DNA of 64,000 nucleotides from Candidatus Hydrogenedentota bacterium (GTDB lineage Bacteria > Hydrogenedentota > Hydrogenedentia > Hydrogenedentales > SLHB01): positions 1 through 64,000 of the forward strand of contig JARKSN010000339.1 of the NCBI GenBank assembly GCA_029974275.1, read 5' to 3'. Within the stretch, counting starts at the first letter, position 1. Each line of letters starts with the position of its first letter. The position numbers were made by a program, and so were the translations under genes. Below are positions 1,997-46,884 of the stretch, piece by piece. Below the pieces are notes generated by a model, which did not search any database, was not told the origin of the DNA, and worked only from the letters and a program-made list of their open reading frames with translations.

Positions 1997-4900
1997 CTAC
2001 GCCGCGGACACGCCCTTGCGCGCTTCGTCGAATTTCACGGAGACCAGTTGCGACACGCCGCGCTCCTGCATCGTGACGCCGTACAACGCGCCGGCGCGCG
2101 CCATCGTCTGCTTGTTATGCGTGATGACGATGAATTGACTCTCGCTCGTGAACTCCTCGACCATGTCGAGAAACCGCCCGATATTCGCGTCATCCAACGG
2201 CGCATCCACCTCGTCCAAGATGCAAAACGGACTCGGCTTCGCCTTGAAAATGCCGAACAGCAGCGCGATCGCCGTCATTGCGCTTTCGCCGCCGGAAAGC
2301 AACGAGATGCTCGTCGGCTTCTTGCCCGGCGGACGCGCTTCGATTTCAATGCCGCTCTCGAGCGGATCGTCCTCGTTCAGGAGATACACCCGCGCCTGGC
2401 CGCCGTTGAACAAGCGCCTGAAATACACCCGGAAATTGTCCGCGATTTGCGTGAAGGTTTCCATGAACAATTCGCGGATTTTCTTGTCGCATCGCGCCAC
2501 GACGCCCAGCAAGGTTTCGCGCGCCTGTTGCAGATCCGCATACTGCGTCGTCAGGAATTCATTGCGCTTCTCCAACGCCTCGTATTCCTCGATCGCCATC
2601 AAATTCACCTCGCCCATGCGCTGCAATTTCGCGCGCAAATCGGCCACCATGCCGTCCCGCGTGGCATCGTCGTATTCGTCCGCGCCCGCTTGTTCCGCGG
2701 TGAGCGCCGGCAACGCGACGTTGTACTCCGTCAAAATGCGCTCCTGAAAAAAGCCGACCCGATCCTCGTTGTGCCGCAACGCCATCTCCGTCTGATGCAA
2801 CTGCGTCTGCGAACTGCGCGCTTTCTCGCGCAATTCGCGCAAGGATTTGTCGATGGCCTCGCCCTCGTTCAACAATTCGGCGCGCTGGTTTTCGGCCTCG
2901 ATGACCTTGCCGCGGGCCTCTTCCTTGCTTTCCGACAGGGCTTTCGAGCGCTCCACCTGCAGCGCGGCCTCCTCTTCGAGCATGGACGCCTGCCGTTTCA
3001 GTTGTTCCACGATCTCGTCGCGCCGGGCCGCTTCGCGCAGGGCTTCTTCGCGTTCGCGATCGAGGCGCGAACGATCGCGTTCCGCCTCTTCGCGATGCTG
3101 CGCGAGGGTCGCCTGCTGAAGACGCAACTCGGACACCTCGCTGCCGTGCACGGAAAGCTCCTGCCGCGCGTGCGACGCGCGCTCTTGCGCCTCCGACATC
3201 TCGCGCTGGAAGGCTTCGTCATCGCTGTCCATGCCCTCGGCGCGCCGCAACACATCGCGCTGCTGCTCTTCCAACCCGTCGCGCCGCACGCACAATTCGT
3301 CGCGCTGCTGGTCCAACTTCTGCGCGGCGTCGACCAGATTGTCGATCTCGGTCGTGCACCGCGCCAGCATCACGCCCAGCTCGTTGATTTCACGGCGCAT
3401 GCCGTGCTCTTTGTGTTCGAGTTCGCGCGTCTGCGCCATCGATTTTTGGATCGATTCCTCCAAGCGACGGCTCTTCGCGATGGTTCCCTCGATATCGCCC
3501 TTGAGTTTTTCAAGCGCCACATCGAGTTCGCCGATCTCCGCGCTGCGCCCGAGCAGCCCCCGGCTCTCATGCTTGTTGCGACCGCCGGTCACCGCGCCCG
3601 ATGCCGACACGACCTCGCCGTCCAACGTGACCAGGCGCGGAATCTTCTCGTACTTGCGCGCGATGCGAATCGCGTCGTCGAGCGTCTCCACGATGAGCGT
3701 GCTGTGCAGCAGATATTCGACCGCAGGCCGCAATTTGGCGTCATACTGGACATAGTCGAGCGCAGGACCGACAATGCCCGGCTGCCCGGCAAGGTCCCCG
3801 CCGTCGTCGCCGCGTCCGCCGCGGATGATGTCCAGCGGCAAAAACGTAACGCGCCCGGCCTGACTCCGCTTCAAAAACGAAATGGCATTCTTCGCCGCTT
3901 CGGCGTCGTCCACCACGATATTGTTGATATTGCCGCCAAGAGCCGCTTCGATCGCCGCCTCGTAGGTTTTTTCCGTAGACAGCAGATCGCCGGCAGGGCC
4001 GATGACGCCGCGCGCCTCGGGCATTTTTTCGGCCTTGGCGCGCATGATCGCCCGCACGCCGACGGCGAAACCCTCGTACGCGTCGCGCAGCTCGCGCAAC
4101 GACGTCAGGCGCGCCTCGGTGCTGCTCTTGCGCTCGCGCTGGCCTTGCCACACGTGCTCGAGCGCCTTCAGTTCCTGCGTCTGTTGCGCGAGTTGGTCGC
4201 GCGCCTGCGTGCGCTTCGACTCGATATCGGCCAGCGCTTCGAGCTTGATTTTTTCCTGGCCGCGCACGTCTTCCAACTGCATCAACAGTTGGTCGCGGCG
4301 GGCGCCGATCGCGCTTTGCTGCTCATAGATCGCGCCAAGCTGCGTTTCGATATTCGAAATGCCCACCGCGAGTTTTTCCAACTCGGTCTGCGTTTTCGCG
4401 CGCGTGTTCATTTGCTCGACCGCGCGCGCGCGCATGGCTTCCAGCGCCGCATCGGCCTCTTCCACGCGCGCAATCGCCCCGGCATGACCGCTCTGCTTGG
4501 CTTCGAACGCCTCCGTGCAGGCCTGAAGCTCGCCGCCTATCCTTTCCAGGCGCTCTGCCGTTTGGGCGATCTCGGTCTCGATGGCCGCCGCGCGCCGCCG
4601 GTACGCCTCCTGCTCGCGCAACGCCTGCTGTTGCTGTTCGCCCGAGAAATCGATCTGCTGCCGCAACAACGCGATTTGCCGCTCGATCTTTTCCATTTCG
4701 GAATCGATTTCGTGCACGCCCTCGCGCCGCGCCATCAACACGCGGTCCATATCGAGCTTGGACAGGTTCAACGCCTCGCGCCGCGCCTCGAACTCGGAAA
4801 TGCGGGCCGACTCGCCCTCGTAGGCGTCTTGCGCCGCGGCAAACGTTTCGCGCAACTGGACGATCTCGGCGCTCAACCGCGTGAACGTCAGCCACGCCGA

Positions 4901-5584
4901 ACGAATCTCGATCTCCCGCAACTGTTCGCTGAGTTCGCGATAGCGGATGGCCGCGTTCACCTGACGCTTCAACGACCGCATCTGGCGCTGCACTTCCGCG
5001 ACGATGTCGTTCAGCCGCAGAAGGTTTTGCTCGGCCCCCTCCAATTTGCGCATGGCCACGCGCTTGCGGCTCTTGTATTTGATGATGCCCGCCGCCTCTT
5101 CGAACAAATAACGCCGGTCCTCGGGCTTCGAACTGAGGATCATGTCCATCTTGCCCTGTCCGACCATCGAATACGCCTGCGTGCCGATGCCGGTGTCCAT
5201 GAACAACTCATGGATGTCCTTCAGCCGGCACGGAGCCTTGTTGAGAAGATATTCGCTCTCGCCGGAGCGATACACGCGGCGCGTCACCTCGACTTCCGAA
5301 AAATCCACCGGCAGAACCGAGTCCGAATTGTCAAAGACGATCGAGACCTCCGCCATGCCCATCGCATGCCGGTGCTCGCTGCCGTTGAACACGACATCCT
5401 GCATGTGCGACCCGCGCAGTTCGCGGGCGTTCTGCTCGCCCAATGCCCAGCGCATGGCGTCGAGAATATTGCTCTTGCCGCACCCGTTCGGTCCCACGAC
5501 CGCCGTGATGCCTGGCTCCAGCCGGACCATCGTGCGGTCGGCAAACGACTTGAACCCCGTCATCTCAAGTTGCTTGAAATACAT
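1997..5584 (-). CDS. smc: Chromosome segregation protein SMC
   Basis: GFKSF, Walker A GPNGCGKSN, long coiled coils, hinge GRVTFLPL, LSGGE signature, LDEVDAPLD Walker B; 1195 aa. Confidence 0.97.
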   Translation of the reverse strand: MYFKQLEMTGFKSFADRTMVRLEPGITAVVGPNGCGKSNILDAMRWALGEQNARELRGSHMQDVVFNGSEHRHAMGMAEVSIVFDNSDSVLPVDFSEVEVTRRVYRSGESEYLLNKAPCRLKDIHELFMDTGIGTQAYSMVGQGKMDMILSSKPEDRRYLFEEAAGIIKYKSRKRVAMRKLEGAEQNLLRLNDIVAEVQRQMRSLKRQVNAAIRYRELSEQLREIEIRSAWLTFTRLSAEIVQLRETFAAAQDAYEGESARISEFEARREALNLSKLDMDRVLMARREGVHEIDSEMEKIERQIALLRQQIDFSGEQQQQALREQEAYRRRAAAIETEIAQTAERLERIGGELQACTEAFEAKQSGHAGAIARVEEADAALEAMRARAVEQMNTRAKTQTELEKLAVGISNIETQLGAIYEQQSAIGARRDQLLMQLEDVRGQEKIKLEALADIESKRTQARDQLAQQTQELKALEHVWQGQRERKSSTEARLTSLRELRDAYEGFAVGVRAIMRAKAEKMPEARGVIGPAGDLLSTEKTYEAAIEAALGGNINNIVVDDAEAAKNAISFLKRSQAGRVTFLPLDIIRGGRGDDGGDLAGQPGIVGPALDYVQYDAKLRPAVEYLLHSTLIVETLDDAIRIARKYEKIPRLVTLDGEVVSASGAVTGGRNKHESRGLLGRSAEIGELDVALEKLKGDIEGTIAKSRRLEESIQKSMAQTRELEHKEHGMRREINELGVMLARCTTEIDNLVDAAQKLDQQRDELCVRRDGLEEQQRDVLRRAEGMDSDDEAFQREMSEAQERASHARQELSVHGSEVSELRLQQATLAQHREEAERDRSRLDREREEALREAARRDEIVEQLKRQASMLEEEAALQVERSKALSESKEEARGKVIEAENQRAELLNEGEAIDKSLRELREKARSSQTQLHQTEMALRHNEDRVGFFQERILTEYNVALPALTAEQAGADEYDDATRDGMVADLRAKLQRMGEVNLMAIEEYEALEKRNEFLTTQYADLQQARETLLGVVARCDKKIRELFMETFTQIADNFRVYFRRLFNGGQARVYLLNEDDPLESGIEIEARPPGKKPTSISLLSGGESAMTAIALLFGIFKAKPSPFCILDEVDAPLDDANIGRFLDMVEEFTSESQFIVITHNKQTMARAGALYGVTMQERGVSQLVSVKFDEARKGVSAA

Positions 5585-6406: not shown

Positions 6407-7972
6407 CTATTTGGCGGTGTCAACGGCGCGCGTCTCGCGGATCACCGTAACCTTGATTTGCCCGGGATACGTCATCTCGCTCTCGACCTTCCTGGCGATA
6501 TCGCGGGCGAGCTGGCTCGCTTCGGCGTCGGTGACCTTTTCCGGGTACACGGCGACGCGAATCTCGCGCCCTGCCTGGAGCGCATACGATTTTTCCACGC
6601 CCGAAAATCCGTCCGCGATGCCCTCGAGCTGTTCCAGACGCTTGATGTACGTCTCGAGCGTTTCCCGCCGGGCGCCCGGACGAGCCGCCGACAACGCATC
6701 CGCCGCTTGAACCAACACGGCAATCACCGACGACTGCTCCATCTCGGCATGGTGCGACCCGATGGCATTGGCGATGTGCTCGTTTTCGCCGTAGCGCTTG
6801 GCCAGGTCGTGCCCGATAACCGCGTGCGACCCCTCCACCTCGTGGTTGATCGCCTTGCCAATGTCATGAATGAGCGCGGCCCGCTTTGCCTCGTGGATGG
6901 GCAACCCCAGTTCGGCGGCCATGAGCCCCGCCAGATGACATACCTCCATCGAATGCCGCAATACGTTCTGGCCGTACGACGTGCGGTACGTCAGACGTCC
7001 CAACAGCTTCACGATCTCCGGATGCAGCCCATGAATGTCCGTGTCCAGACACGCCCGCTCGCCATTCTCCTTGATCGTCTGATTCATCTCTTCCGTGACC
7101 TTCTGCACCACCTCCTCAATCCGGGCGGGGTGAATGCGGCCATCCTGAATGAGACGTTCCAGCGAAATGCGGGCAATTTCACGGCGAACCGGGTCAAAAC
7201 CGGAAAGAATGACCGCCTCGGGCGTGTCATCAATGATGCAGTTGATGCCGGTCGCAGCCTCGAGCACGCGAATGTTGCGCCCTTCGCGTCCGATAATGCG
7301 CCCCTTCATTTCGTCGTTCGGAAGATTTACGACCGAGACGACCGCCTCGGCGACATGATCGGCGGCGCAACGTTGAATGGCCTGGGTGATGACCCATTTT
7401 GCCTTCTTTTCGGAATTTTCAACCATTTCGTCTTCAATGCGTTTGAGACGAATGGCGGTGTCGCGCCGGACCTCCGTTTCCAACTGATTGAACAACAGCC
7501 GTTTGGCTTCCTCGGCGCTCATGCCGGACACGGCTTCAAGCCGGGTCGTTTGCTCGTCGACCAGCGCCTTGATCTTATCGCGCTCCGTATCCAGCGCCTT
7601 CTCGCGATCGCCCAACTCACGCTCGCGCGCATTCAGATCATTCGCCTTTCGTTCGAGCGTTTCGACGCGCTTGTCGACCGTCTCTTCCTTGGCGAGAATG
7701 CGTTTCTCCAGAGCCACCAATTCTTTACGCTGCTCTCGAGTCTCCCTTTCCGTCTCCTCGCGGAGTTGTATCCGCTGCTCTTTTATGGATGTGTTGGCTT
7801 CCTTCAGGATAGAAGCGGCATCGCGCTCTGCGTTGGATATCGTCTGCGCGGCTTCCCGGCGAGCCTTTCCCAGCAAATTGCGTCCTGCAATGCGTGCGCT
7901 CACCACCGTGACGGCAACGCCCAGCAAACCGCCCGCCACTACCCACAATACGGTGATATACACCTGCGGCAT
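6407..7972 (-). CDS. rny: Ribonuclease Y
   Basis: N-terminal TM, coiled coil, KH domain ([13 protein letters not shown]), HD domain (HDIGKA). GGAGGAG RBS before ATG at 7972. Confidence 0.96.
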
Positions 7973-40777: not shown

Positions 40778-43318
40778 ATGGCAAAGCAGTTAATGGTGCG
40801 TCCAGAGGAAGTGCGAAAAAGCGGCGAGATCGCGCTCGGTTCTATTCCCGTCAATCGATACAACCGCACGCTCCAGCAGGAACTCAAGTCGAACGCCGAC
40901 ATTACCCCTGCGCGGTGTCTACGTGTCTATCGCGATATGGCGCTGATCCGCGAATTCGAGAACATGCTCGACGCGATCAAAAAGCTGGGGGCGTACGAGG
41001 GCATCGCGTACAAGCACGCAGGCCCGGCGCATTTGTCCATCGGTCAGGAAGGCGCGGCCGTCGGCGAGGCGTTTTATCTGACCGTCGATGACCACATTTA
41101 CGGCAGTCACCGCAGTCACGGCGAGATCATCGCGAAGGGGCTGCGCGCCATCGATGACCTGAAGGGCGAACAACTGGACGCGATCATGCGCGGCTATTTC
41201 GACGGGACCATTCTGGGCATCGTCGAGAAGCATGACGCAAACGGCGAGCCGCTGAAGGTCTCCGGCAAGAACAACGGCAAGTCGGGTTTGGCCACTTCCG
41301 CCGAGGAAGAACTCGGGGTGGATTTCCTTCTGTATGGTTTGCTTGCCGAGATTTTCGCGAAGGAGACCGGTTTTAACAAGGGCCTGGGCGGATCGATGCA
41401 CGCCTTCTTTACGCCCTTCGGCATCTACCCGAACAACGCGATCGTCGGCGGCAGCGCGGACATCGCGACGGGCGCGGCGTTGTACAAAAAAATTCTCAAG
41501 CAGAAGGGCGTGGTGGTCGCGAACATCGGCGATGCGTCGATGGGCTGCGGACCGGTGTGGGAAGCGCTCGCGTTTGCGTCGATGAGCCAGTTCAAGAACC
41601 TGTGGGACGAGGCGCATCGCGGCGGGCTTCCGCTCATTTTCAATTTCATGAACAATTTCTACGGCATGGGCGGCCAGCCGATCGGCGAAACGATGGGCTT
41701 CGATCACGTCGCGCGCGTGGGCGCGGGCGTCAATCCCGAGAAGATGCACGCCGAGTGCGTCGACGGCAACAACCCGCTCGCATTGGCCGAGGCGTACAAG
41801 CGCAAGATCGCATTGGCCAAGACGGGGCAAGGCCCGATCTTGATCGAAGCGATTTGCTACCGCCAGACCGGCCATTCGCCCAGCGATCAGTCTTCCTATC
41901 GCGAGAAGGAAGAGATCGACATGTGGCGCAAGGTCGATCCGCTCACCGAGTTCGCGGGCAAACTCGTGGAAGCAGGCGTCGCCACCGAAGACGACCTCGC
42001 CGCAATCCGCGCCTATGCGACGCGCAAGGTCAGCAAGGCGTGCCGTCTGGCGGTCGACGACAGCGTGTCGCCGCGCATGGTGCTGCTACCGCACACGACC
42101 CTCGACACGATGACATACTCGAACGTATTGGAAAAAGAACTGCCCGGCCTGCGCGACCCGCACGACGTCTCCATGCCGATCGAGCAAAACCCGCGCGTTA
42201 TCCAAATCGCGAAGAAGTCGCGTAGCGGCATCGACGCCGACGGCAAAGCGCTCAAGGAAGCCCGCGCGGTCAGCTATCGCGACGCGATCTTCGAGCCCAT
42301 TCTGCACCATTTCTACAACGACAGCCGCGTGGTGGCCTACGGCGAAGAGAACCGCGATTGGGGCGGTGCGTTCGCCGTGTATCGCGGCCTGACCGAAGCG
42401 TTGCCGTACCACCGCCTGTTCAACTCGCCGATTTCCGAAGGCGCGATTGTCGGCACGGCCGTCGGGTTCGCGCTCGAAGGCGGACGCCCGGTAGTCGAGT
42501 TGATGTACTGCGACTTCATGGGACGTTCCGGCGACGAAGTGTTCAACCAGCTCTCGAAATGGCAGGCAATGTCCGGCGGGTACTGCCGCATGCCCGTCGT
42601 GTTGCGCGTATCCGTTGGCAGCAAATACGGCGCGCAACATTCGCAAGACTGGACGGCCTTGTGCGCGCACGTGCCGGGTCTAAAAGTCGTGTTCCCCGCG
42701 ACGCCGTATTCGGCGAAAGGCCTGATGGCTTCGGCGTTGTTGGGCAGCGACCCCGTGATTTTTTTCGAGAGCCAGCGCCTGTATGACGTGACCGAGACCT
42801 TCCATCCGCAGGGCGTGCCCGCAGAGTATTACACACTGCCGATCGGCGTGCCCGAAGTACTGAAGGAAGGCCGCGATGTGACGATCATGACTTTCGGCGC
42901 GACGCTGTATCGGGCGCGCGAGGCTGCGGCCCAACTCGAACGCGACCACGGCGTGTCGGTCGAGTTGATCGATGGGCAGTCGCTCGTGCCGTTCGACTAT
43001 GACATCCTTTTGAACTCCGTGCGCAAGACCGGCAAGTTGATCCTTGCGAGCGACGCCTGCGAGCGCGGCAGTTACATGCACACCATCGCTTCGAACGTGA
43101 CGCAAATGGCCTTTGACGATCTCGATGCGCCCGTGTGCGTCATTGGCGCGAAGAACTGGATCGTGCCGCCCGCCGAACTCGAGGATTATTACTACCCGAT
43201 GGCGAGTTGGTTCCTGGATGCGTACCACACGCAGATCAAACCCCTGCCCGGTTACCAGCCCGCCACCGATCGCAGCGTTGCCGAGATGCGGTTGGCGTCG
43301 AAGTACGGCGTGCTGTAG
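40778..43318 (+). CDS. 2-oxoacid dehydrogenase E1, fused alpha+beta (TPP-dependent)
   Basis: HLSIGQEG, SHRSHG, GGSMH, GDAS...NNFYGM TPP motif, YRQTGHS; beta half NSPISEGAIVG, GAQHSQ, DPVIFFE. Confidence 0.93.
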   Translation: MAKQLMVRPEEVRKSGEIALGSIPVNRYNRTLQQELKSNADITPARCLRVYRDMALIREFENMLDAIKKLGAYEGIAYKHAGPAHLSIGQEGAAVGEAFYLTVDDHIYGSHRSHGEIIAKGLRAIDDLKGEQLDAIMRGYFDGTILGIVEKHDANGEPLKVSGKNNGKSGLATSAEEELGVDFLLYGLLAEIFAKETGFNKGLGGSMHAFFTPFGIYPNNAIVGGSADIATGAALYKKILKQKGVVVANIGDASMGCGPVWEALAFASMSQFKNLWDEAHRGGLPLIFNFMNNFYGMGGQPIGETMGFDHVARVGAGVNPEKMHAECVDGNNPLALAEAYKRKIALAKTGQGPILIEAICYRQTGHSPSDQSSYREKEEIDMWRKVDPLTEFAGKLVEAGVATEDDLAAIRAYATRKVSKACRLAVDDSVSPRMVLLPHTTLDTMTYSNVLEKELPGLRDPHDVSMPIEQNPRVIQIAKKSRSGIDADGKALKEARAVSYRDAIFEPILHHFYNDSRVVAYGEENRDWGGAFAVYRGLTEALPYHRLFNSPISEGAIVGTAVGFALEGGRPVVELMYCDFMGRSGDEVFNQLSKWQAMSGGYCRMPVVLRVSVGSKYGAQHSQDWTALCAHVPGLKVVFPATPYSAKGLMASALLGSDPVIFFESQRLYDVTETFHPQGVPAEYYTLPIGVPEVLKEGRDVTIMTFGATLYRAREAAAQLERDHGVSVELIDGQSLVPFDYDILLNSVRKTGKLILASDACERGSYMHTIASNVTQMAFDDLDAPVCVIGAKNWIVPPAELEDYYYPMASWFLDAYHTQIKPLPGYQPATDRSVAEMRLASKYGVL
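43125..43318 (+). repeat. 194-bp direct repeat, copy 1 (3' end of the E1 gene)
   Basis: Aligns ungapped with 45479-45672; 16 mismatches by manual alignment. Confidence 0.97.
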
Positions 43319-43338
43319 AACCTGGTTTTCGAGATCAT

Positions 43339-43376
43339 AAGAGGCCCTCTCTGTGAATGAGGGCTCTTTGTTTTTT
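43339..43376 (+). terminator. Intrinsic terminator after the E1 gene
   Basis: AAGAGGCCCTC...GAGGGCTCTT followed by TGTTTTTT. Confidence 0.7.
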
Positions 43377-43395
43377 GATACGACACAATCTTGGT

Positions 43396-43424
43396 TTCAC
43401 GGGCAAAAGGAATTGCGCTATACT
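43396..43424 (+). promoter_or_regulatory. Putative sigma70 promoter of the ATPase cassette
   Basis: TTCACG-17 nt-TATACT about 40 nt upstream of the GTG start. Confidence 0.55.
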
Positions 43425-43463
43425 AGATCCTGGTAGCTTTCCAAAAGGCTGAGGAATCCGAGC

Positions 43464-44846
43464 GTGTTAACTAGATTTAGGGTAAAAGGCTTCAAAAACT
43501 TGCTCGATATTGATGTGCGTTTCGGACCCTTTACGTGTATTGCAGGCGTGAACGGAGTCGGGAAATCGAATCTTTTTGATGCAATGCGGTTTCTGCATTT
43601 GCTGGCCGCCAATCCGATTATGGAGGCGGTTCAGTCCTTGCGGGAGACAAAGGGCCGTTCGCTCGAACCTCGGTCTTTGTTCACGACTTCCGCGTCGTTC
43701 CGAAGCGAAGAAATCCGCTTCATCGCTAATCTTGTTGTCAATCGGGAGGTTCAAGACGATTTTGGCGTTGCTGCGAAAGCAGCCACATCAAGTCTGGAAT
43801 ACACTCTCGCGTTCCGCGTTCAAAACGGTGGAGGCGCAGAACGATTAGAGCTCGTCGAGGAATCGTTGCTTCCAACACCCATAGTCAAGGCAAGAAAAGA
43901 CATTGGTTTTCCGGCATCTAAAGAATTCAAGGACTCATGCCTAACCGGAAGAAGAGCGCAGCCGTTTGTCTCGACCAGATCAGGCGATATCCCAACAATC
44001 ACGGTACATCAGGAGGGGCATGGCGGCCGGACCCTTCCTGCGCCCAAATCATCCAGAACCATTGTGGGCGGCATGGCCTCGAGTGACTTCCCTACTATCC
44101 TTGCCGTCAACAAAGAATTCTTATCTTGGAAAAGTCTCCTTCTTGAACCTTCAGCAATGCGCGCCCCGTCTCTTTACACCGACTCCAAAAGTATTGATGC
44201 GCGCGGAGGCAATCTGCCTGCTGCGATATTCAGACTCCAAGGACAGGAAAACAACCCTGGCGAGATTTATGCGTCGCTCACGAACAGACTTGCGGAACTT
44301 ATTGACGATGTCTTGGATTTGCGCGTCAAGGATGACGAGAAAACGGAGACCTTGACGCTGGAGGTAAAAGGCAAGGATGGGGTTTTCCATCCGGCACGCT
44401 CCTTGTCGGACGGCACGCTGCGTTTCCTTGTGTTGGCGACGCTCTCCCTGGATCCGGAGACAAGAGGAGTGATTTGCCTGGAAGAGCCCGAGAATGGAAT
44501 TCATCCCGAACGTATAGACGCGATGGTTCGACTTTTGCGTGACGTTGCTGTGGATTCAAACTATCCTGTGAGCAACGAAAATCCACTTCGGCAGGTAATT
44601 GTAAACACCCATTCCCCGGAAGTCGTTAATGCCATTGCCAACTTGAATGACTTGATCTATCTCGAAGAAGAGCGGACTTCGCGCTATGGCCGCATCGCCG
44701 TGCCGACCGCGCCAGAGAATTCTTGGCGAAACAGGATAGAAACCACCTCCGGCGCAACTCGACGGGGAAGACTAGCTCCATATTTTAGGAACCGTGACCT
44801 TCAAACATGGTTTGATTTCACGCGTGAGCCCAGAGCCGAAGCATGA
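43464..44846 (+). CDS. ABC-type AAA ATPase (AAA_21/AAA_15-like), putative defence component
   Basis: GFKNL, Walker A GVNGVGKSN, signature LSDGTLRFL, Walker B/D-loop ICLEEPENGIHP, H-loop VNTHSP; visibly more AT-rich than neighbours. Confidence 0.88.
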   Translation: MLTRFRVKGFKNLLDIDVRFGPFTCIAGVNGVGKSNLFDAMRFLHLLAANPIMEAVQSLRETKGRSLEPRSLFTTSASFRSEEIRFIANLVVNREVQDDFGVAAKAATSSLEYTLAFRVQNGGGAERLELVEESLLPTPIVKARKDIGFPASKEFKDSCLTGRRAQPFVSTRSGDIPTITVHQEGHGGRTLPAPKSSRTIVGGMASSDFPTILAVNKEFLSWKSLLLEPSAMRAPSLYTDSKSIDARGGNLPAAIFRLQGQENNPGEIYASLTNRLAELIDDVLDLRVKDDEKTETLTLEVKGKDGVFHPARSLSDGTLRFLVLATLSLDPETRGVICLEEPENGIHPERIDAMVRLLRDVAVDSNYPVSNENPLRQVIVNTHSPEVVNAIANLNDLIYLEEERTSRYGRIAVPTAPENSWRNRIETTSGATRRGRLAPYFRNRDLQTWFDFTREPRAEA

Positions 44847-45472
44847 GGCGCTTGACGTACACACTCGTTGCAGACGGACCGAGCGATCAATGCCTCTTGC
44901 GGATCATCAACTGGACGCTTAGTCAGAGCGATTGCATATCCCCCGAAACTGATCTTGTCTCCAGTTTCGGGCGCTTCGGATGTCGCGATTTGGCCGATCG
45001 CGTTCTCGACGGTTTCACGCAATTCCCCTGCGATATTATCTTCGTTCATCGAGATGCAGAAAGAGAGCCTAGAGAGAAAAGGTTGCAGGAAATCAAGGAA
45101 GCGATTTCGCAGTGCCAGTCTATACGCGCCTATGTGCCGGTGATTCCTATTCGCATGACAGAAGCGTGGCTTTTGATTGACACGAACGCAATTCGACGCG
45201 CGGCGGACAATCCGAATGGATGTGTGGCGATCGATTTGCCTTCGGTGAAAAAACTCGAGTCAGTACCCGATCCCAAGAGAGAGCTGCATAGCCTTCTGGA
45301 AGCCGCTTCCGAAAAAACAGGGCGACGTCTAGACCAATTCAAACGGGACTTGCCCCTTAGAGTCCGGCGTGTCGCAGACTACATCGATGATTTTAGTCCG
45401 CTTCGAAGATTGCCAGCGTTCCAAAAATTCGAGGCAGATCTTTCCCGGGCACTCGAGGCTCTTGCGCGCTGA
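44843..45472 (+). CDS. DUF4276-like TOPRIM-fold putative nuclease
   Basis: LVADGPSD, IFVHRDAE, PIRMTEAWLL, DPKREL; ATGA overlap with the ATPase. Confidence 0.72.
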   Translation: MRRLTYTLVADGPSDQCLLRIINWTLSQSDCISPETDLVSSFGRFGCRDLADRVLDGFTQFPCDIIFVHRDAEREPREKRLQEIKEAISQCQSIRAYVPVIPIRMTEAWLLIDTNAIRRAADNPNGCVAIDLPSVKKLESVPDPKRELHSLLEAASEKTGRRLDQFKRDLPLRVRRVADYIDDFSPLRRLPAFQKFEADLSRALEALAR

Positions 45473-45478
45473 AGCACT

Positions 45479-45672
45479 ATGCGCCCGTGTGCGTCATTGG
45501 CGCGAAGAACTGGATTGTTCCACCAGCAGAGCTAGAAGACTACTACTACCCAATGGCGAGTTGGTTCCTGGACGCCTACCACACGCAGATCAAACCCCTC
45601 CCCGGCTACCAGCCCGCCACCGACCGCAGCGTTGCCGAGATGCGGTTGGCGTCGAAGTACGGCGTGCTGTAG
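45479..45672 (+). repeat. 194-bp direct repeat, copy 2: promoterless duplicate of the last 63 codons of E1 plus stop
   Basis: Encodes an identical peptide (APVCVIGAKNW...ASKYGVL*); all differences from copy 1 are synonymous. Confidence 0.95.
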
Positions 45673-45729
45673 GTTTTTTGAGGGATGAAGGGCTGATCAT
45701 TTGCCGCAGTGGACGCGTCGTGCGGGTTG

Positions 45730-46884
45730 TCATTTGGCGGGCAGGACAATCATGTCGACAACTTCGCCGGGCAGGAATAGATCGTTTGAAAGGTCGCTCA
45801 CAATCAGCGGCATGCCGTATTGTTCGAATTGAAGGCTGCGCCATAGGCGCGTGGGCATCAATTGAACATGATCGCCCACTTTGGTGATGGTGGCTTGCGC
45901 CACGCGCAGGGGCGCGCTCCGTGAGCGGATCGTGACCCGGTCGCCCACGGCAATCTGAGGAATGTTTTTTTCGGGCACGTAGGCCAGTACGCGTTGCGTT
46001 CGTTCGATCGCGATGGTGAGGAGCTGTTCGCCCTGAAGCGCGTTTTCCCCGGCGCGTTTGAGCATCGTGGCCACTTGTCCCGCATAGGGTGCGCGCAGCG
46101 CCAACTGTTCTCGGCGGCTGCCGATTTCCTGGATTCGCGCTTCCTGCACTCGGATTTCCTCGCGCACGGGATCCAAAAGGGGATCGAGCGCCGGGTTCGT
46201 TCGGGCGGTCGCGAGTTCCTGTTGGCGTTTGCCGGCTTCTTCCATGCGCTTCTTGTCCATGGCGAGCGCCTTCTCGTTTTCTTCAATCCGCTTTTGCAGC
46301 GCTTCGCATTCCAGCCGCGCGATGTCGTATGCCGCGGCGTCGAGCAATCCCTCCTCCACCATGCGCCGCTGCCGGTCGCGCGCGATCTCCAGGGAGCGCA
46401 ACGTGACCTTGTCCGCTTCGTGTTGGACTTGGCGATCGAGGAGGCCCAGGCGGGCTTGCTCCTCATTGAGGGAAAAGCGCCGTTGGCTGTCGATTCCTTG
46501 CAACAGCTCTGCCGTCGCATCGAATCCGATTTGAGCCTTTGTCGCTTCGACTTGGGCGGCAAGGCGGGCGATTTCCGCTTTCGCCACCGCGAGTTCGGCG
46601 TCCAGCACGGAGGTGTCCATTGTGCCGATGACTTGGTCCGCGGCGACGGTGTCGAGCGTGTCGACGGCGAGGCATTGGATTTTGCCTGGCGCCGGCGCGG
46701 TCACCATGGCCCATTGCGGGTCCGCGATGCCGACGCCCGTGATTTGGCGCGAACGCGTTTGCAGCAGCGCGATGACGCTGCCTACGGCAAGCAGCCAGAC
46801 GAGGGCGGGGAGGAGGCGGCGCCGGATTTTTCGGAGCCGTTGCGCGGGTTTTCCCGGCCATCCATTGGAATCGTCGACTGTCAT
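45730..46884 (-). CDS. HlyD-family membrane fusion / secretion protein
   Basis: N-terminal TM; VTAPAPGKI lipoyl half; long coiled coil; LRAPYAGQV; PGEVVD end. Confidence 0.82.
   Translation of the reverse strand: MTVDDSNGWPGKPAQRLRKIRRRLLPALVWLLAVGSVIALLQTRSRQITGVGIADPQWAMVTAPAPGKIQCLAVDTLDTVAADQVIGTMDTSVLDAELAVAKAEIARLAAQVEATKAQIGFDATAELLQGIDSQRRFSLNEEQARLGLLDRQVQHEADKVTLRSLEIARDRQRRMVEEGLLDAAAYDIARLECEALQKRIEENEKALAMDKKRMEEAGKRQQELATARTNPALDPLLDPVREEIRVQEARIQEIGSRREQLALRAPYAGQVATMLKRAGENALQGEQLLTIAIERTQRVLAYVPEKNIPQIAVGDRVTIRSRSAPLRVAQATITKVGDHVQLMPTRLWRSLQFEQYGMPLIVSDLSNDLFLPGEVVDMIVLPAK

Follow-up and report, generated by a model that had tools for sequence, protein, structure and literature searches.

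In Campbell-type insertion-duplication, as in suicide-plasmid integration, a non-replicating circle enters by one crossover in a cloned homology arm, which leaves a copy of the arm to either side of the insert, the two being reciprocal hybrids, and a cloned arm reaching the end of a gene leaves that gene intact. CIMEs and att-flanked integrase-less elements have no recombinase of their own and carry repeats from the end of a target gene; they need the integrase of a related helper element and a fixed crossover site. The minimal mobile elements of Neisseria are reportedly cassettes without mobility genes that are moved by homologous recombination, with a double crossover in both flanking genes that leaves no duplication behind. 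Long target duplication is also said to have been described by Nobusato et al. (2000, Gene 259:99). Insertion of this kind is known for restriction-modification genes, as set out in the portions of Furuta, Abe & Kobayashi (2010, NAR 38:2428, PMC2853133) drawn on here: a unit of less than 20 kb without a mobility gene lies between unique direct repeats of 46-423 bp, which correspond to one copy where a related genome has the empty site, are 93-100% identical to each other in the rows of Tables 2 and 3 considered here (in Table 2 also to the target) and in many cases extend across a start or stop codon, so that the target gene survives. In those portions, the mechanism is left open. The genes concerned here belong to HEC-01 (Hma-embedded candidate 01; PADLOC-DB; Payne et al., bioRxiv 10.1101/2024.01.29.577857), which is described as related to AriA/AriB of PARIS in the relevant part of PMC11464382. 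A HEC-01 representative gave no defence in the assay of Payne et al., and the part of that preprint used here makes no mention of HEC-01 mobility or flanking duplications.

The window is a stretch of 64,000 nt from a Candidatus Hydrogenedentota bacterium (assembly GCA_029974275.1, contig JARKSN010000339.1; genome G000 below). The locus is made up as follows.

40778..43318, + strand: E1 target gene, 2-oxoacid dehydrogenase fused E1 component, intact, 846 aa (ORF, Pfam)
43125..43318, + strand: proximal repeat copy, the working E1 3' end (last 64 codons plus stop)
43319..43463, + strand: cassette leader, with a hairpin and a promoter-like site (consensus matches only)
43464..44846, + strand: HEC-01A, ABC-type ATPase, 460 aa (PADLOC, Pfam)
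44843..45472, + strand: HEC-01B, DUF4276/Toprim-like protein, 209 aa (PADLOC, Pfam)
45479..45672, + strand: distal repeat copy, a non-functional duplicate of the E1 3' end
45730..46884, - strand: downstream native neighbour, a convergent HlyD-family gene (Pfam HlyD_3, 9.6e-15)

The E1 gene matches E1_dh (2e-45), Transket_pyr (4.6e-29) and Transketolase_C (1.2e-23) in Pfam, and its orthologues are single-copy in 33/40 relatives, at a nucleotide identity of about 71-79%. A repeat search returned one direct repeat family of 194 nt, with two copies that are 92% identical at a spacing of 2354, in agreement with the initial annotation, which had reported that the E1 end recurs at 45479-45672. The insert between the copies is 2160 nt long and holds two genes. 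The distal copy begins 6 nt past the DUF4276 stop and terminates at its own TAG, and the homology ends precisely at the TAG stop in both copies. Neither a further copy of the repeat nor a second copy of the insert was found in the 4.38-Mb assembly.

By consensus matches, the leader has a terminator-like hairpin followed by a T-run (43347-43363), directly past the E1 stop, and a promoter-like site at 43396-43424 (TTCACG-17-TATACT). The ATPase matches PDLC04184 in PADLOC (4.9e-95, residues 1-395 on profile positions 1-398 of 464) and AAA_21 (4.6e-28), AAA_15 and SMC_N in Pfam, with a Walker A motif (GVNGVGKS) and a Walker B-like one (ICLEEPE). The start of HEC-01B overlaps the ATPase stop by 4 nt; its product matches PDLC04210 (3.1e-27, residues 1-208 on profile positions 1-213 of 217), and its Pfam DUF4276 match (4.7e-4) lies under the cut-off. 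Residues D11, G12, D15, H69, R70, D71 and E73 are conserved across 59 homologues, in the arrangement D11-G12-x-x-D15 and H69-R70-D71-A72-E73. The structure model has a pLDDT of 94; the C-terminal region of OLD (6nk8_A) came only at rank 10 in Foldseek (E 0.05, TM 0.40), and AriB (8v46_D) scored Z 7.0 in VIA, amid many generic alpha/beta folds at Z 7-9. These profile matches identify the cargo as HEC-01, a catalogued pair of candidate defence genes, with the same two proteins in the order ABC ATPase, then DUF4276/Toprim-like partner; unlike the catalogued pair, it lies behind a metabolic gene, outside any Hma, BREX or RM locus. The GC content of the cassette is 0.50-0.54, versus 0.59-0.64 in the flanks, and its GC3 is 0.53-0.55 versus 0.80. 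The earlier description of the cassette as integrase-free holds for the whole 81-kb contig (C249), on which no tyrosine or serine recombinase was found; the genome has 10 tyrosine- and 5 serine-recombinase matches, all on other contigs.

The traits used as criteria by Furuta et al. 2010 are present at this locus: the repeats are longer than 30 bp and align to one empty-site copy (see below), and the unit is shorter than 20 kb, has no linked mobility gene and has a repeat that is not multi-copy. The kind of insertion is shared; its cargo, HEC-01 instead of restriction-modification genes, is new. The initial annotation had seen a candidate for an undescribed mobility mechanism; the architecture fits instead the long target duplication in the portions of PMC2853133 drawn on here. 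In contrast to the minimal mobile elements of Neisseria, a duplication is present, and the comparison with suicide-plasmid integration is that of a natural element with a laboratory one.

Compared codon by codon in the E1 frame, the two copies show 16 differences, every one at a third position and synonymous. Identity is complete over 37 nt at the start and 48 nt at the end; as first annotated, ten of the differences fall in consecutive codons (43160-43189) and six are scattered. The six lie at 43198, 43219, 43222, 43246, 43252 and 43270. The synonymous fraction of the possible single-base changes in the repeat is 0.231, which gives P = 6.6e-11 for 16/16 synonymous. Because the divergence is synonymous-only, both versions of the gene end must have evolved as working coding sequence, as the claim of protein-level selection had it, and duplication in situ followed by decay of the dead copy is excluded. 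Such decay is exemplified by the distal copy of another HEC-01 locus (L154), with 6 non-synonymous changes and a 2-nt deletion. The E1 divergence between natural strains is also mainly synonymous (22/26 changed codons). The suggestion that the distal copy had served as the functional gene end is right in that both versions evolved as coding sequence; it does not apply to the distal copy as such. The copies look like reciprocal hybrids. Compared with the cases of Furuta et al., the 16 silent sites are what points to an imported homologous arm; they indicate that the duplicate was probably imported as such an arm and not copied from the recipient's target.

A precise empty site, which the first reading had proposed to look for among relatives, was found in a strain from an independent study (run X5), ~2-5% diverged from the G000 strain. 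One of its contigs joins 43222 to 45577 (23 letters at the joint are ambiguous), skipping 2354 nt, so that a single E1 end is joined directly to the HlyD gene. Together with the composition, this supports the cassette as a discrete foreign unit that some strains carry and others lack. The X5 strain matches the proximal copy at 8/10 codons of the dense block and at 43222, and the distal copy at 43177 and 43183 (inside the block), at 45600 (the joint position) and at 45624 (no difference listed); the comparison leaves out 43198, 43219 and 45606. The switch from left to right thus involves few sites (Fisher's exact test by hand, about 0.08). Since the block of the empty-site strain reads like the proximal copy, the odd codons would belong to the incoming DNA. 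That the X5 strain is not a direct ancestor counts against reading the arm as imported. The initial annotation had placed the crossover in the 37-bp identical block; the X5 joint and codon usage would put it ~100 nt further on.

43223..43245, + strand: probable crossover interval, 23 nt identical in both copies (= 45577-45599; X5 joint, codon preference)

To the left of this interval the proximal copy is host-typical (block log-likelihood -8.8 vs -15.5), and to its right the distal copy is (GGC 74% vs GGT 9%, GAC 73% vs GAT 27% in E1). At position 43246 a G-ending codon is found in 16/19 relatives, favouring the proximal copy as native there; this consensus speaks against the hybrid interpretation at that position.

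Contigs from two further runs bear on the assembly. Those of X3 (another study) cover 44419-45980 with 0 differences and follow the path from cassette through distal copy to the HlyD gene, and those of X1 cover 42496-43318 and 43289-43615 at an even depth (E1 6.1-7.6, cassette 6.7, downstream 7.2), consistent with the order E1, proximal copy, cassette, distal copy, HlyD. The X1, X3 and X5 contigs were presumably built from 31-letter words; they cannot phase the identical stretches of 37 and 48 nt because those are longer, and thus the order rests on the original assembly. Among the run contigs, none shows a go-back joint (circular form), a point against the integration of a circle favoured below, and none spans the whole unit.

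The ten consecutive changed codons form two versions of one block.

43160..43189, + strand: native-type ten-codon block (I V P P A E L E D Y) of the proximal copy
45514..45543, + strand: odd ten-codon block of the distal copy, with codons rare in E1

The proximal block reads ATC GTG CCG CCC GCC GAA CTC GAG GAT TAT and agrees with the consensus of 19 relatives; the distal one reads ATT GTT CCA CCA GCA GAG CTA GAA GAC TAC, and its codons GTT, CCA and CTA have frequencies of 4%, 3% and 4% in E1. CTA, GTT and the CCA-CCA pair were found in 0/19 relatives, neither variant occurs elsewhere in the 4.38-Mb assembly (<=8 mismatches in 45 nt), and the odd block has no copy among viral contigs. The clustering does go beyond chance: with 16 changed among 59 changeable codons, a run of >=10 arose in 5 of 1,000,000 random placements. 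The longest run in the divergence between X5 and G000 is 3, so that a run of 10 is far denser than that divergence, an observation against an imported arm. The same holds for the variable residues D-Y-Y-Y-P-M-A-S, which the block's donor kept unchanged; a donor close in protein and saturated at silent sites would be needed. The dense block is statistically odd, yet plausibly a relic of a more diverged allele.

Other ATPase/DUF4276 cassettes between duplicated gene ends, for which the initial annotation had suggested a search, do exist. Tight flanking repeats of 56-466 nt were found at 13/160 related HEC-01 loci, comprising 12 distinct elements; among the loci with adequate flanks, 8/108 carry them. 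These loci are scattered across the ATPase tree, and one (L073) is in an isolate genome. The duplicate usually is the 3' end of a housekeeping gene, and in 7/8 aligned loci the repeat ends <=9 nt from a stop codon. The target is comM at four loci (L069, L154, L161 and L162), with repeats of 117, 213, 466 and at least 94 nt, and a class II aminoacyl-tRNA synthetase at three (L103, L123 and L124). As the comM repeats differ in length, there appears to be no fixed crossover site; the E1-end repeats vary too (194 nt in G000, 345 nt in G021). The distal copy starts 0-26 nt past the DUF4276 stop in 7/12 loci with a readable spacer. Recombinase or transposase families were found in 0/124 flank ORFs (>=170 aa) of the 13 repeat-flanked loci. 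A dense synonymous block is absent from the other repeat-flanked HEC-01 loci examined.

On the evidence of the repeat, a composition unlike that of the host, the lack of a recombinase on the contig, an empty site and comparable loci in other genomes, we favour, at a probability of roughly 0.55, a Campbell-type homologous integration by a single crossover near 43223-43245, in which the DNA brought its own E1-end arm from another lineage. The foreign unit of 2354 bp would consist of the E1-end homology arm, terminator, promoter and the genes of the HEC-01 ATPase and the DUF4276 protein, probably as a circle or an equivalent form, and would have entered by one homologous crossover within the E1 gene end, as an insertion-duplication. 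Recombination would be by the host machinery and not by an integrase, presumably depending on RecA. E1 would stay intact because the arm extends exactly to the stop codon, and the displaced end would be left behind the cassette. The source of the arm may be another lineage of the same group; with both alleles having evolved as working genes, only synonymous changes would separate the copies, and the all-synonymous differences would be explained without special recoding. As reciprocal hybrids, the copies would hold the native allele in proximal-left plus distal-right, and the imported allele in distal-left (with the odd block) plus proximal-right. The odd block may be a relic of a more diverged donor allele, while later crossovers or gene conversion would have made the rest of the arm host-like. 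Much the same picture would arise from a linear double crossover with a donor in which the duplication already existed.

An unlikely alternative is site-specific integration by an integrase acting in trans or since lost, the unit being an att-flanked, cis-mobilisable remnant in which the distal copy is the displaced native end and the proximal copy the element's replacement. Repeats that begin inside a conserved gene and extend to its end have the usual attL/attR shape, comM and class II aminoacyl-tRNA synthetases are what we take to be classical integrase targets, G000 does encode recombinases elsewhere, and a helper integrase could lie on unassembled DNA of this 342-contig assembly. Against this, no recombinase lies in the unit, on its contig or among the flank ORFs of the repeat-flanked loci, where the unit is tightly bounded (13 loci, 12 distinct elements), and the 194-nt segment has no second genomic copy; unlike in CIMEs, no helper, second att copy or fixed site was found. 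Repeat lengths differ at one and the same target gene and between G000 and G021, and the X5 joint and codon usage would, on few sites, place the switch ~100 nt inside the repeat and not at its left edge, where a fixed core is predicted. In addition, the native end would need six E1-rare codons that are missing in the empty-site strain.

Quite unlikely is a homology-facilitated illegitimate recombination, or another process of long target duplication, in which a linear fragment anchored in E1 joins at its far end upstream of the stop and so duplicates the native end. This suits the left edges of the repeats, which are arbitrary and vary between loci, and the short distance between the DUF4276 stop and the distal copy. 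ComEC and DprA are present, though also in most control genomes, and Furuta et al. found most of their cases in naturally competent species, according to the portions of PMC2853133 drawn on here. It predicts, however, a wholly native distal copy, while neither the empty-site strain nor any of the 19 relatives has the odd block, and it does not predict a switch of codon usage within the repeat.

We regard it as very unlikely that selection shaped the ten-codon block as a silent recoding that blocks recombination between the copies, stabilising the cassette, or removes a site for a nuclease, recombinase or guide RNA. The improbable run, the rare codons and the bidirectional changes (six codons to A/T; GAC and TAC to C), as though no changeable codon had been spared, would suit it, and the block trims a would-be identical stretch of 73 nt (43125 up to 43198, the next difference past the block) to 37 nt. 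A role as a selected barrier to RecA or a nuclease is, however, not required by the evidence; only 8/10 codons differ from the empty-site strain, and protection from a nuclease is argued against by the working gene, which keeps the unrecoded sequence. No block-like sequence or spacer match was found elsewhere in the genome, the other repeat-flanked loci examined are without such a block, and the gain from lowering an already rare loop-out would probably be very small. Highly improbable, in our judgement, is a wider version in which HEC-01 cassettes are a self-sufficient, integrase-free mobile class: circles of 2-3 kb that would insert by a portable gene-end arm into conserved housekeeping genes, leaving them unharmed, with arm recoding selected to fix crossovers or stop loop-out and their own RecF-like ABC ATPase and RecR-like Toprim protein promoting recombination.

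An assembly artefact, in which E1 ends of two variant strains were merged, or else an empty chromosome with a free circle of 2.35 kb, would find room in the identical stretches longer than the word length and in the lack of a single spanning contig, and is extremely unlikely given the X3 path without differences, the even X1 depth and twelve other distinct loci alike, including that of the isolate. A free-standing homing endonuclease (intronless homing), which would call for a cleavage-resistant target in the working gene of the element-bearing allele, was rejected, the consensus block being in the working proximal copy and the odd block in the dead one.

Many anti-phage systems occur in genomes without visible means of transport. 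The present case is an instance of a known but poorly understood route for defence genes without a recombinase of their own, most likely by ordinary homologous recombination. This locus, twelve other distinct HEC-01 loci and the restriction-modification cases make it a repeatable route, in which the cassette brings, or creates, a duplicate of a conserved gene end and its landing leaves the gene unharmed. That the copies diverge at silent sites only is a rare piece of direct evidence on the mechanism, which Furuta et al. 2010, in the portions drawn on here, leave unsettled. If this holds widely, defence genes could pass between strains and species by host recombination alone, and duplication scars could flag cassettes that have recently moved.

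The window contains a single 194-nt direct repeat (43125-43318 and 45479-45672), whose copies share 92% identity at a spacing of 2354 nt. The proximal copy is the working 3' end of a dehydrogenase gene (E1), and the distal copy is a non-functional duplicate behind a two-gene cassette, arranged as follows.

40778-43318: E1 target gene, fused component of a 2-oxoacid dehydrogenase (846 aa; domains E1_dh, Transket_pyr and Transketolase_C)
3' of the E1 stop, in this order: terminator-like hairpin, promoter-like site, two overlapping genes
First cassette gene: PADLOC HEC-01A match (4.9e-95)
Second cassette gene: PADLOC HEC-01B match (3.1e-27)
45479-45672: distal copy, starting 6 nt past the stop of the second cassette gene
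Downstream of the distal copy: convergent HlyD-family gene

The insert has a GC content of 0.50-0.54 versus 0.59-0.64 in the flanks, and a GC3 of 0.53-0.55 versus 0.80 in E1. HEC-01 is a catalogued candidate anti-phage pair of an ABC ATPase together with a Toprim-like DUF4276 protein which, according to the available part of the preprint, gave no protection in its authors' assay (Payne et al., bioRxiv 10.1101/2024.01.29.577857). For the second cassette protein, a Toprim-like nature is plausible: the conserved acidic residues are present, and its confidently predicted model (pLDDT 94) matches only generic alpha/beta structures, PARIS AriB and the C-terminal region of the OLD nuclease among them. 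As regards a recombinase role for DUF4276, no resolvase-type fold is among the top matches listed in two structure searches.

Compared in the E1 frame, the repeat copies differ at 16 positions, all of them third-position and synonymous. Ten of these fall in consecutive codons (43160-43189, hereafter the block), the first 37 and the last 48 nt are identical, and both copies end with the TAG stop; the codon comparison thereby reproduces what the initial annotation had described. Because synonymous changes make up just 23% of the possible single-base changes in the repeat, 16 silent differences out of 16 correspond to P = 6.6e-11, in agreement with the protein-level constraint on the gene end that had been proposed. 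The clustering also exceeds chance, a run of at least ten changed codons having been obtained in 5 of 1,000,000 random placements. No extra copy of the repeat, of either block version or of the insert was found in the host assembly (G000; 4.38 Mb, 342 contigs). When a gene is functional in related lineages, its alleles diverge mostly at silent sites, and between G000 and a related strain from a public sequencing run (X5), 22 of the 26 changed E1 codons are synonymous. Decay in place of a dead copy was ruled out as the origin of the pattern, since silent-only differences are not expected from it. The pattern indicates that the duplicate arrived as a homologous arm instead of being copied from the recipient's own target. 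At L154, another repeat-flanked HEC-01 locus, the distal copy carries six non-synonymous changes and a 2-nt deletion and, with the outgroups L139 and L052 used for polarisation, the proximal copy is favoured at most sites over the whole length, with no switch, so that this duplicate looks like a case of in-situ decay.

The strain in X5, which comes from another study, is ~2-5% diverged from that of the window. A 4384-nt contig of this run joins 43222 straight to 45577, skipping exactly 2354 nt, and cover is zero throughout the cassette. This joint is a precise empty site, of the kind that the initial annotation had suggested looking for in relatives; its block is proximal-like at 8/10 codons and distal-like at 43177 and 43183. 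Moreover, 40 relatives, all of other genera, were compared: each one with a match has one full-length E1 end, and an extra partial copy occurs only in G021. In 19 other-genus relatives the block is proximal-like, and none of the 19 has the distal copy's CTA, GTT or CCA-CCA pair (0/19), codons that are rare in E1 (GTT 4%, CCA 3%, CTA 4%). Codon preference switches sides at 43223-43245, and rightward of it the E1-preferred codons sit in the distal copy (E1 usage of GGC 74% and GAC 73%, versus GGT 9% and GAT 27% in the proximal one). At the X5 joint, 23 letters are ambiguous (43223-43245), which means that X5 agrees with the proximal version at 43222 and with the distal one at 45600; its contig shows no listed difference at 45624. 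These comparisons are suggestive, although not decisive, of a native allele that would combine proximal-left with distal-right, and an imported allele that would combine distal-left with proximal-right, X5 not being the ancestor, three sites being missing and the family consensus at 43246 siding with the proximal copy.

Such reciprocal hybrid copies are what a single crossover would leave if the chromosome recombined with a circular (or equivalent) molecule that had its own copy of the gene end. Single-crossover homologous integration of an arm-bearing molecule is the reading that we favor, with a probability of roughly 0.55. No go-back joint, which would be the sign of a circle, was found in the contigs of the four runs examined, contigs being a form of the data that drops rare forms. 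As for the source of the cassette, the nearest ATPases have only 58-64% identity to its own, the search among plasmids gave just one 98-nt match (77% identity) and that among phages none, and no viral contig matches the odd, distal version of the block exactly. G000 has ComEC and DprA, yet most control genomes have them equally.

The missing integrase reported in the initial annotation was confirmed, as the whole 81-kb contig contains no tyrosine or serine recombinase, and a Pfam scan of 124 flank ORFs (each at least 170 aa long) at the repeat-flanked HEC-01 loci matched none to a recombinase or transposase family. An integrase supplied in trans is, in our assessment, an unlikely agent of the insertion, and an illegitimate-join variant appears slightly less probable again.

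The block far exceeds ordinary strain divergence in density (longest run there, three codons), and it changes codons in both directions. Its interpretation as a silent recoding under selection is doubtful, more so than the two readings just named: the odd version differs from the empty-site strain at just 8/10 codons, the working gene keeps the unrecoded sequence and would thus be unprotected from a nuclease, the block is unmatched elsewhere in G000, and the dense block is absent from all other repeat-flanked HEC-01 loci aligned. A simpler account is that the block is a relic of a donor allele, close in protein and saturated at silent sites, in which case the rest of the imported arm would have been replaced later via further crossovers or conversion. 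This account needs a donor that kept the variable residues 3' of the conserved WIVPPAELE motif. A paralogue as the donor was rejected, since the block (in either version) and the 194-nt segment have no further copy in G000, and so was a CRISPR self-target, as the same search gave no spacer-like match.

A 5-kb stretch of the locus is at least partly present in 20 public runs from 17 studies, three of which hold at least half of the sampled words, and four runs were examined at the contig level. A contig of X3, from a study other than that of the best holder, passes from the cassette through the distal copy with the odd block into the HlyD gene with 0 differences. The contigs of X1 contain E1 with the proximal copy, as well as the passage from repeat to cassette, and depth is even over flanks and cassette. 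Parts of the unit are uncovered in X1, X3 and X4, gaps that are uninformative at 2-7x depth. The order of E1, the copies and the cassette rests on the original assembly, as the run contigs, presumably built from 31-letter words, cannot phase the 37- and 48-nt identical stretches with words of this length. An assembly artefact is very improbable.

Sister ATPase/DUF4276 cassettes with gene-end duplications, which the initial annotation had proposed to search for, do exist. Among 160 loci with ATPase relatives (37-62% identity in the best tblastn segment), 13 have tight flanking repeats, defined as direct, at least 40 nt long, at least 75% identical and closely around the gene pair; they represent 12 distinct elements (L134 is identical to L154), and eight belong to the subset of 108 loci in which both genes are present and each flank measures at least 300 nt. 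L124 is a further case with a shorter, more diverged repeat. One of the cases comes from an isolate genome (L073). In other parts of these loci, comparably spaced direct repeats with both copies in one flank occur in three loci. As a rule the left copy consists of a same-strand gene's 3' end, and in 7/8 aligned loci no more than 9 nt separate the end of the repeat from the stop codon.

Target genes at repeat-flanked HEC-01 loci
comM-type Mg-chelatase genes: L069, L161, L154/L134, L162 (repeats of varying length: 117, 213, 466 and at least 94 nt)
Class II aminoacyl-tRNA synthetase genes: L103, L123, L124
ZnuA gene: L155
S-subunit-like gene in a type I RM locus: L108
Start region of the downstream gene: L077, L090

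Repeat-flanked rows are spread over the tree of 153 ATPases, with 14 changes for 15 rows, at least ten of them forced by well-supported branches, and they cluster no better than shuffled labels. In two cases the repeat-flanked pair is embedded in another defence locus: in L108 (941-7504), it has type I HsdM/S-like genes on one side and a second AAA_21 ATPase on the other, and in L090 (2-8154) it is flanked by a gene for a DNA methylase and a DUF6079 gene. Direct repeats at ~2.1-2.2 kb spacing in the flanks of L064 (315-528/2393-2606; 214 nt, 96%) and L176 (6334-6460/8547-8673; 127 nt, 98%) may mark other small cassettes inserted likewise. In L022, whose ATPase (58% identical) is the best tblastn match in the genome collection, three segments of the upstream region and ATPase gene (3866-3944, 4179-4247 and 5132-5220) reappear in the same order at 7346-7581 behind the pair, as if a second copy of the cassette had been deleted down to a stump.

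Other repeats were observed in G000 and in G021, a relative of another genus in the same family. The second, partial E1 3' end of G021 (L187, G021:C102, 765-1109 versus L188, G021:C194, 3952-4296) spans 345 nt at 89.6% identity, with 25 synonymous and nine non-synonymous codon changes, and the homology stops a few nt past the stop codon; the partial end lies on a separate contig, where it adjoins a dispersed repeat and a fragment of a DDE transposase. Rearrangements may recur at the E1 end. In G000, near-terminal direct overlaps on C41 (6925 nt; 98 nt, 27-124/6828-6925) and C195 (5738 nt; 110 nt, 1-110/5629-5738) are as expected for small circular molecules. Direct repeats of 120 nt on C74 (1461-1580/5620-5739) and 50 nt on C158 (57081-57130/66297-66346) surround tyrosine-recombinase matches (2213-2710 and 65045-65551); these are ordinary integrase islets, unlike the integrase-free HEC-01 unit. 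Kb-spaced repeats on C67, C156 and C257 were rejected as sister cassettes because their contents are not defence cassettes. The one on C156 (3666-3922/10064-10317, in L183 1667-1923/8065-8318; 259 nt, 94.6%) begins directly past the stop of a chorismate-binding/aminotransferase gene and surrounds a 6.4-kb segment in which radical-SAM, YhdP-like and YebC genes lie.

Kobayashi's group gave the name "insertion with long target duplication" to a pattern of restriction-modification genes in which the direct repeats (46-423 bp) are unique, mobility genes are lacking and the empty site has one copy (Furuta et al. 2010, PMC2853133). In many cases a start or stop codon is spanned by the repeat, which lets the target survive, and the available text leaves the mechanism open (Furuta et al. 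2010, PMC2853133). As far as that text goes, the unit in the window has the same pattern, and the undescribed mobility mechanism suggested in the initial annotation does not hold. No account of HEC-01 mobility was found in the literature searched. Nobusato et al. 2000 is reportedly a further reference for this kind of insertion. The insertion of the cassette is real, recent and strain-variable, and it belongs to a known, poorly understood kind rather than representing a new mechanism.
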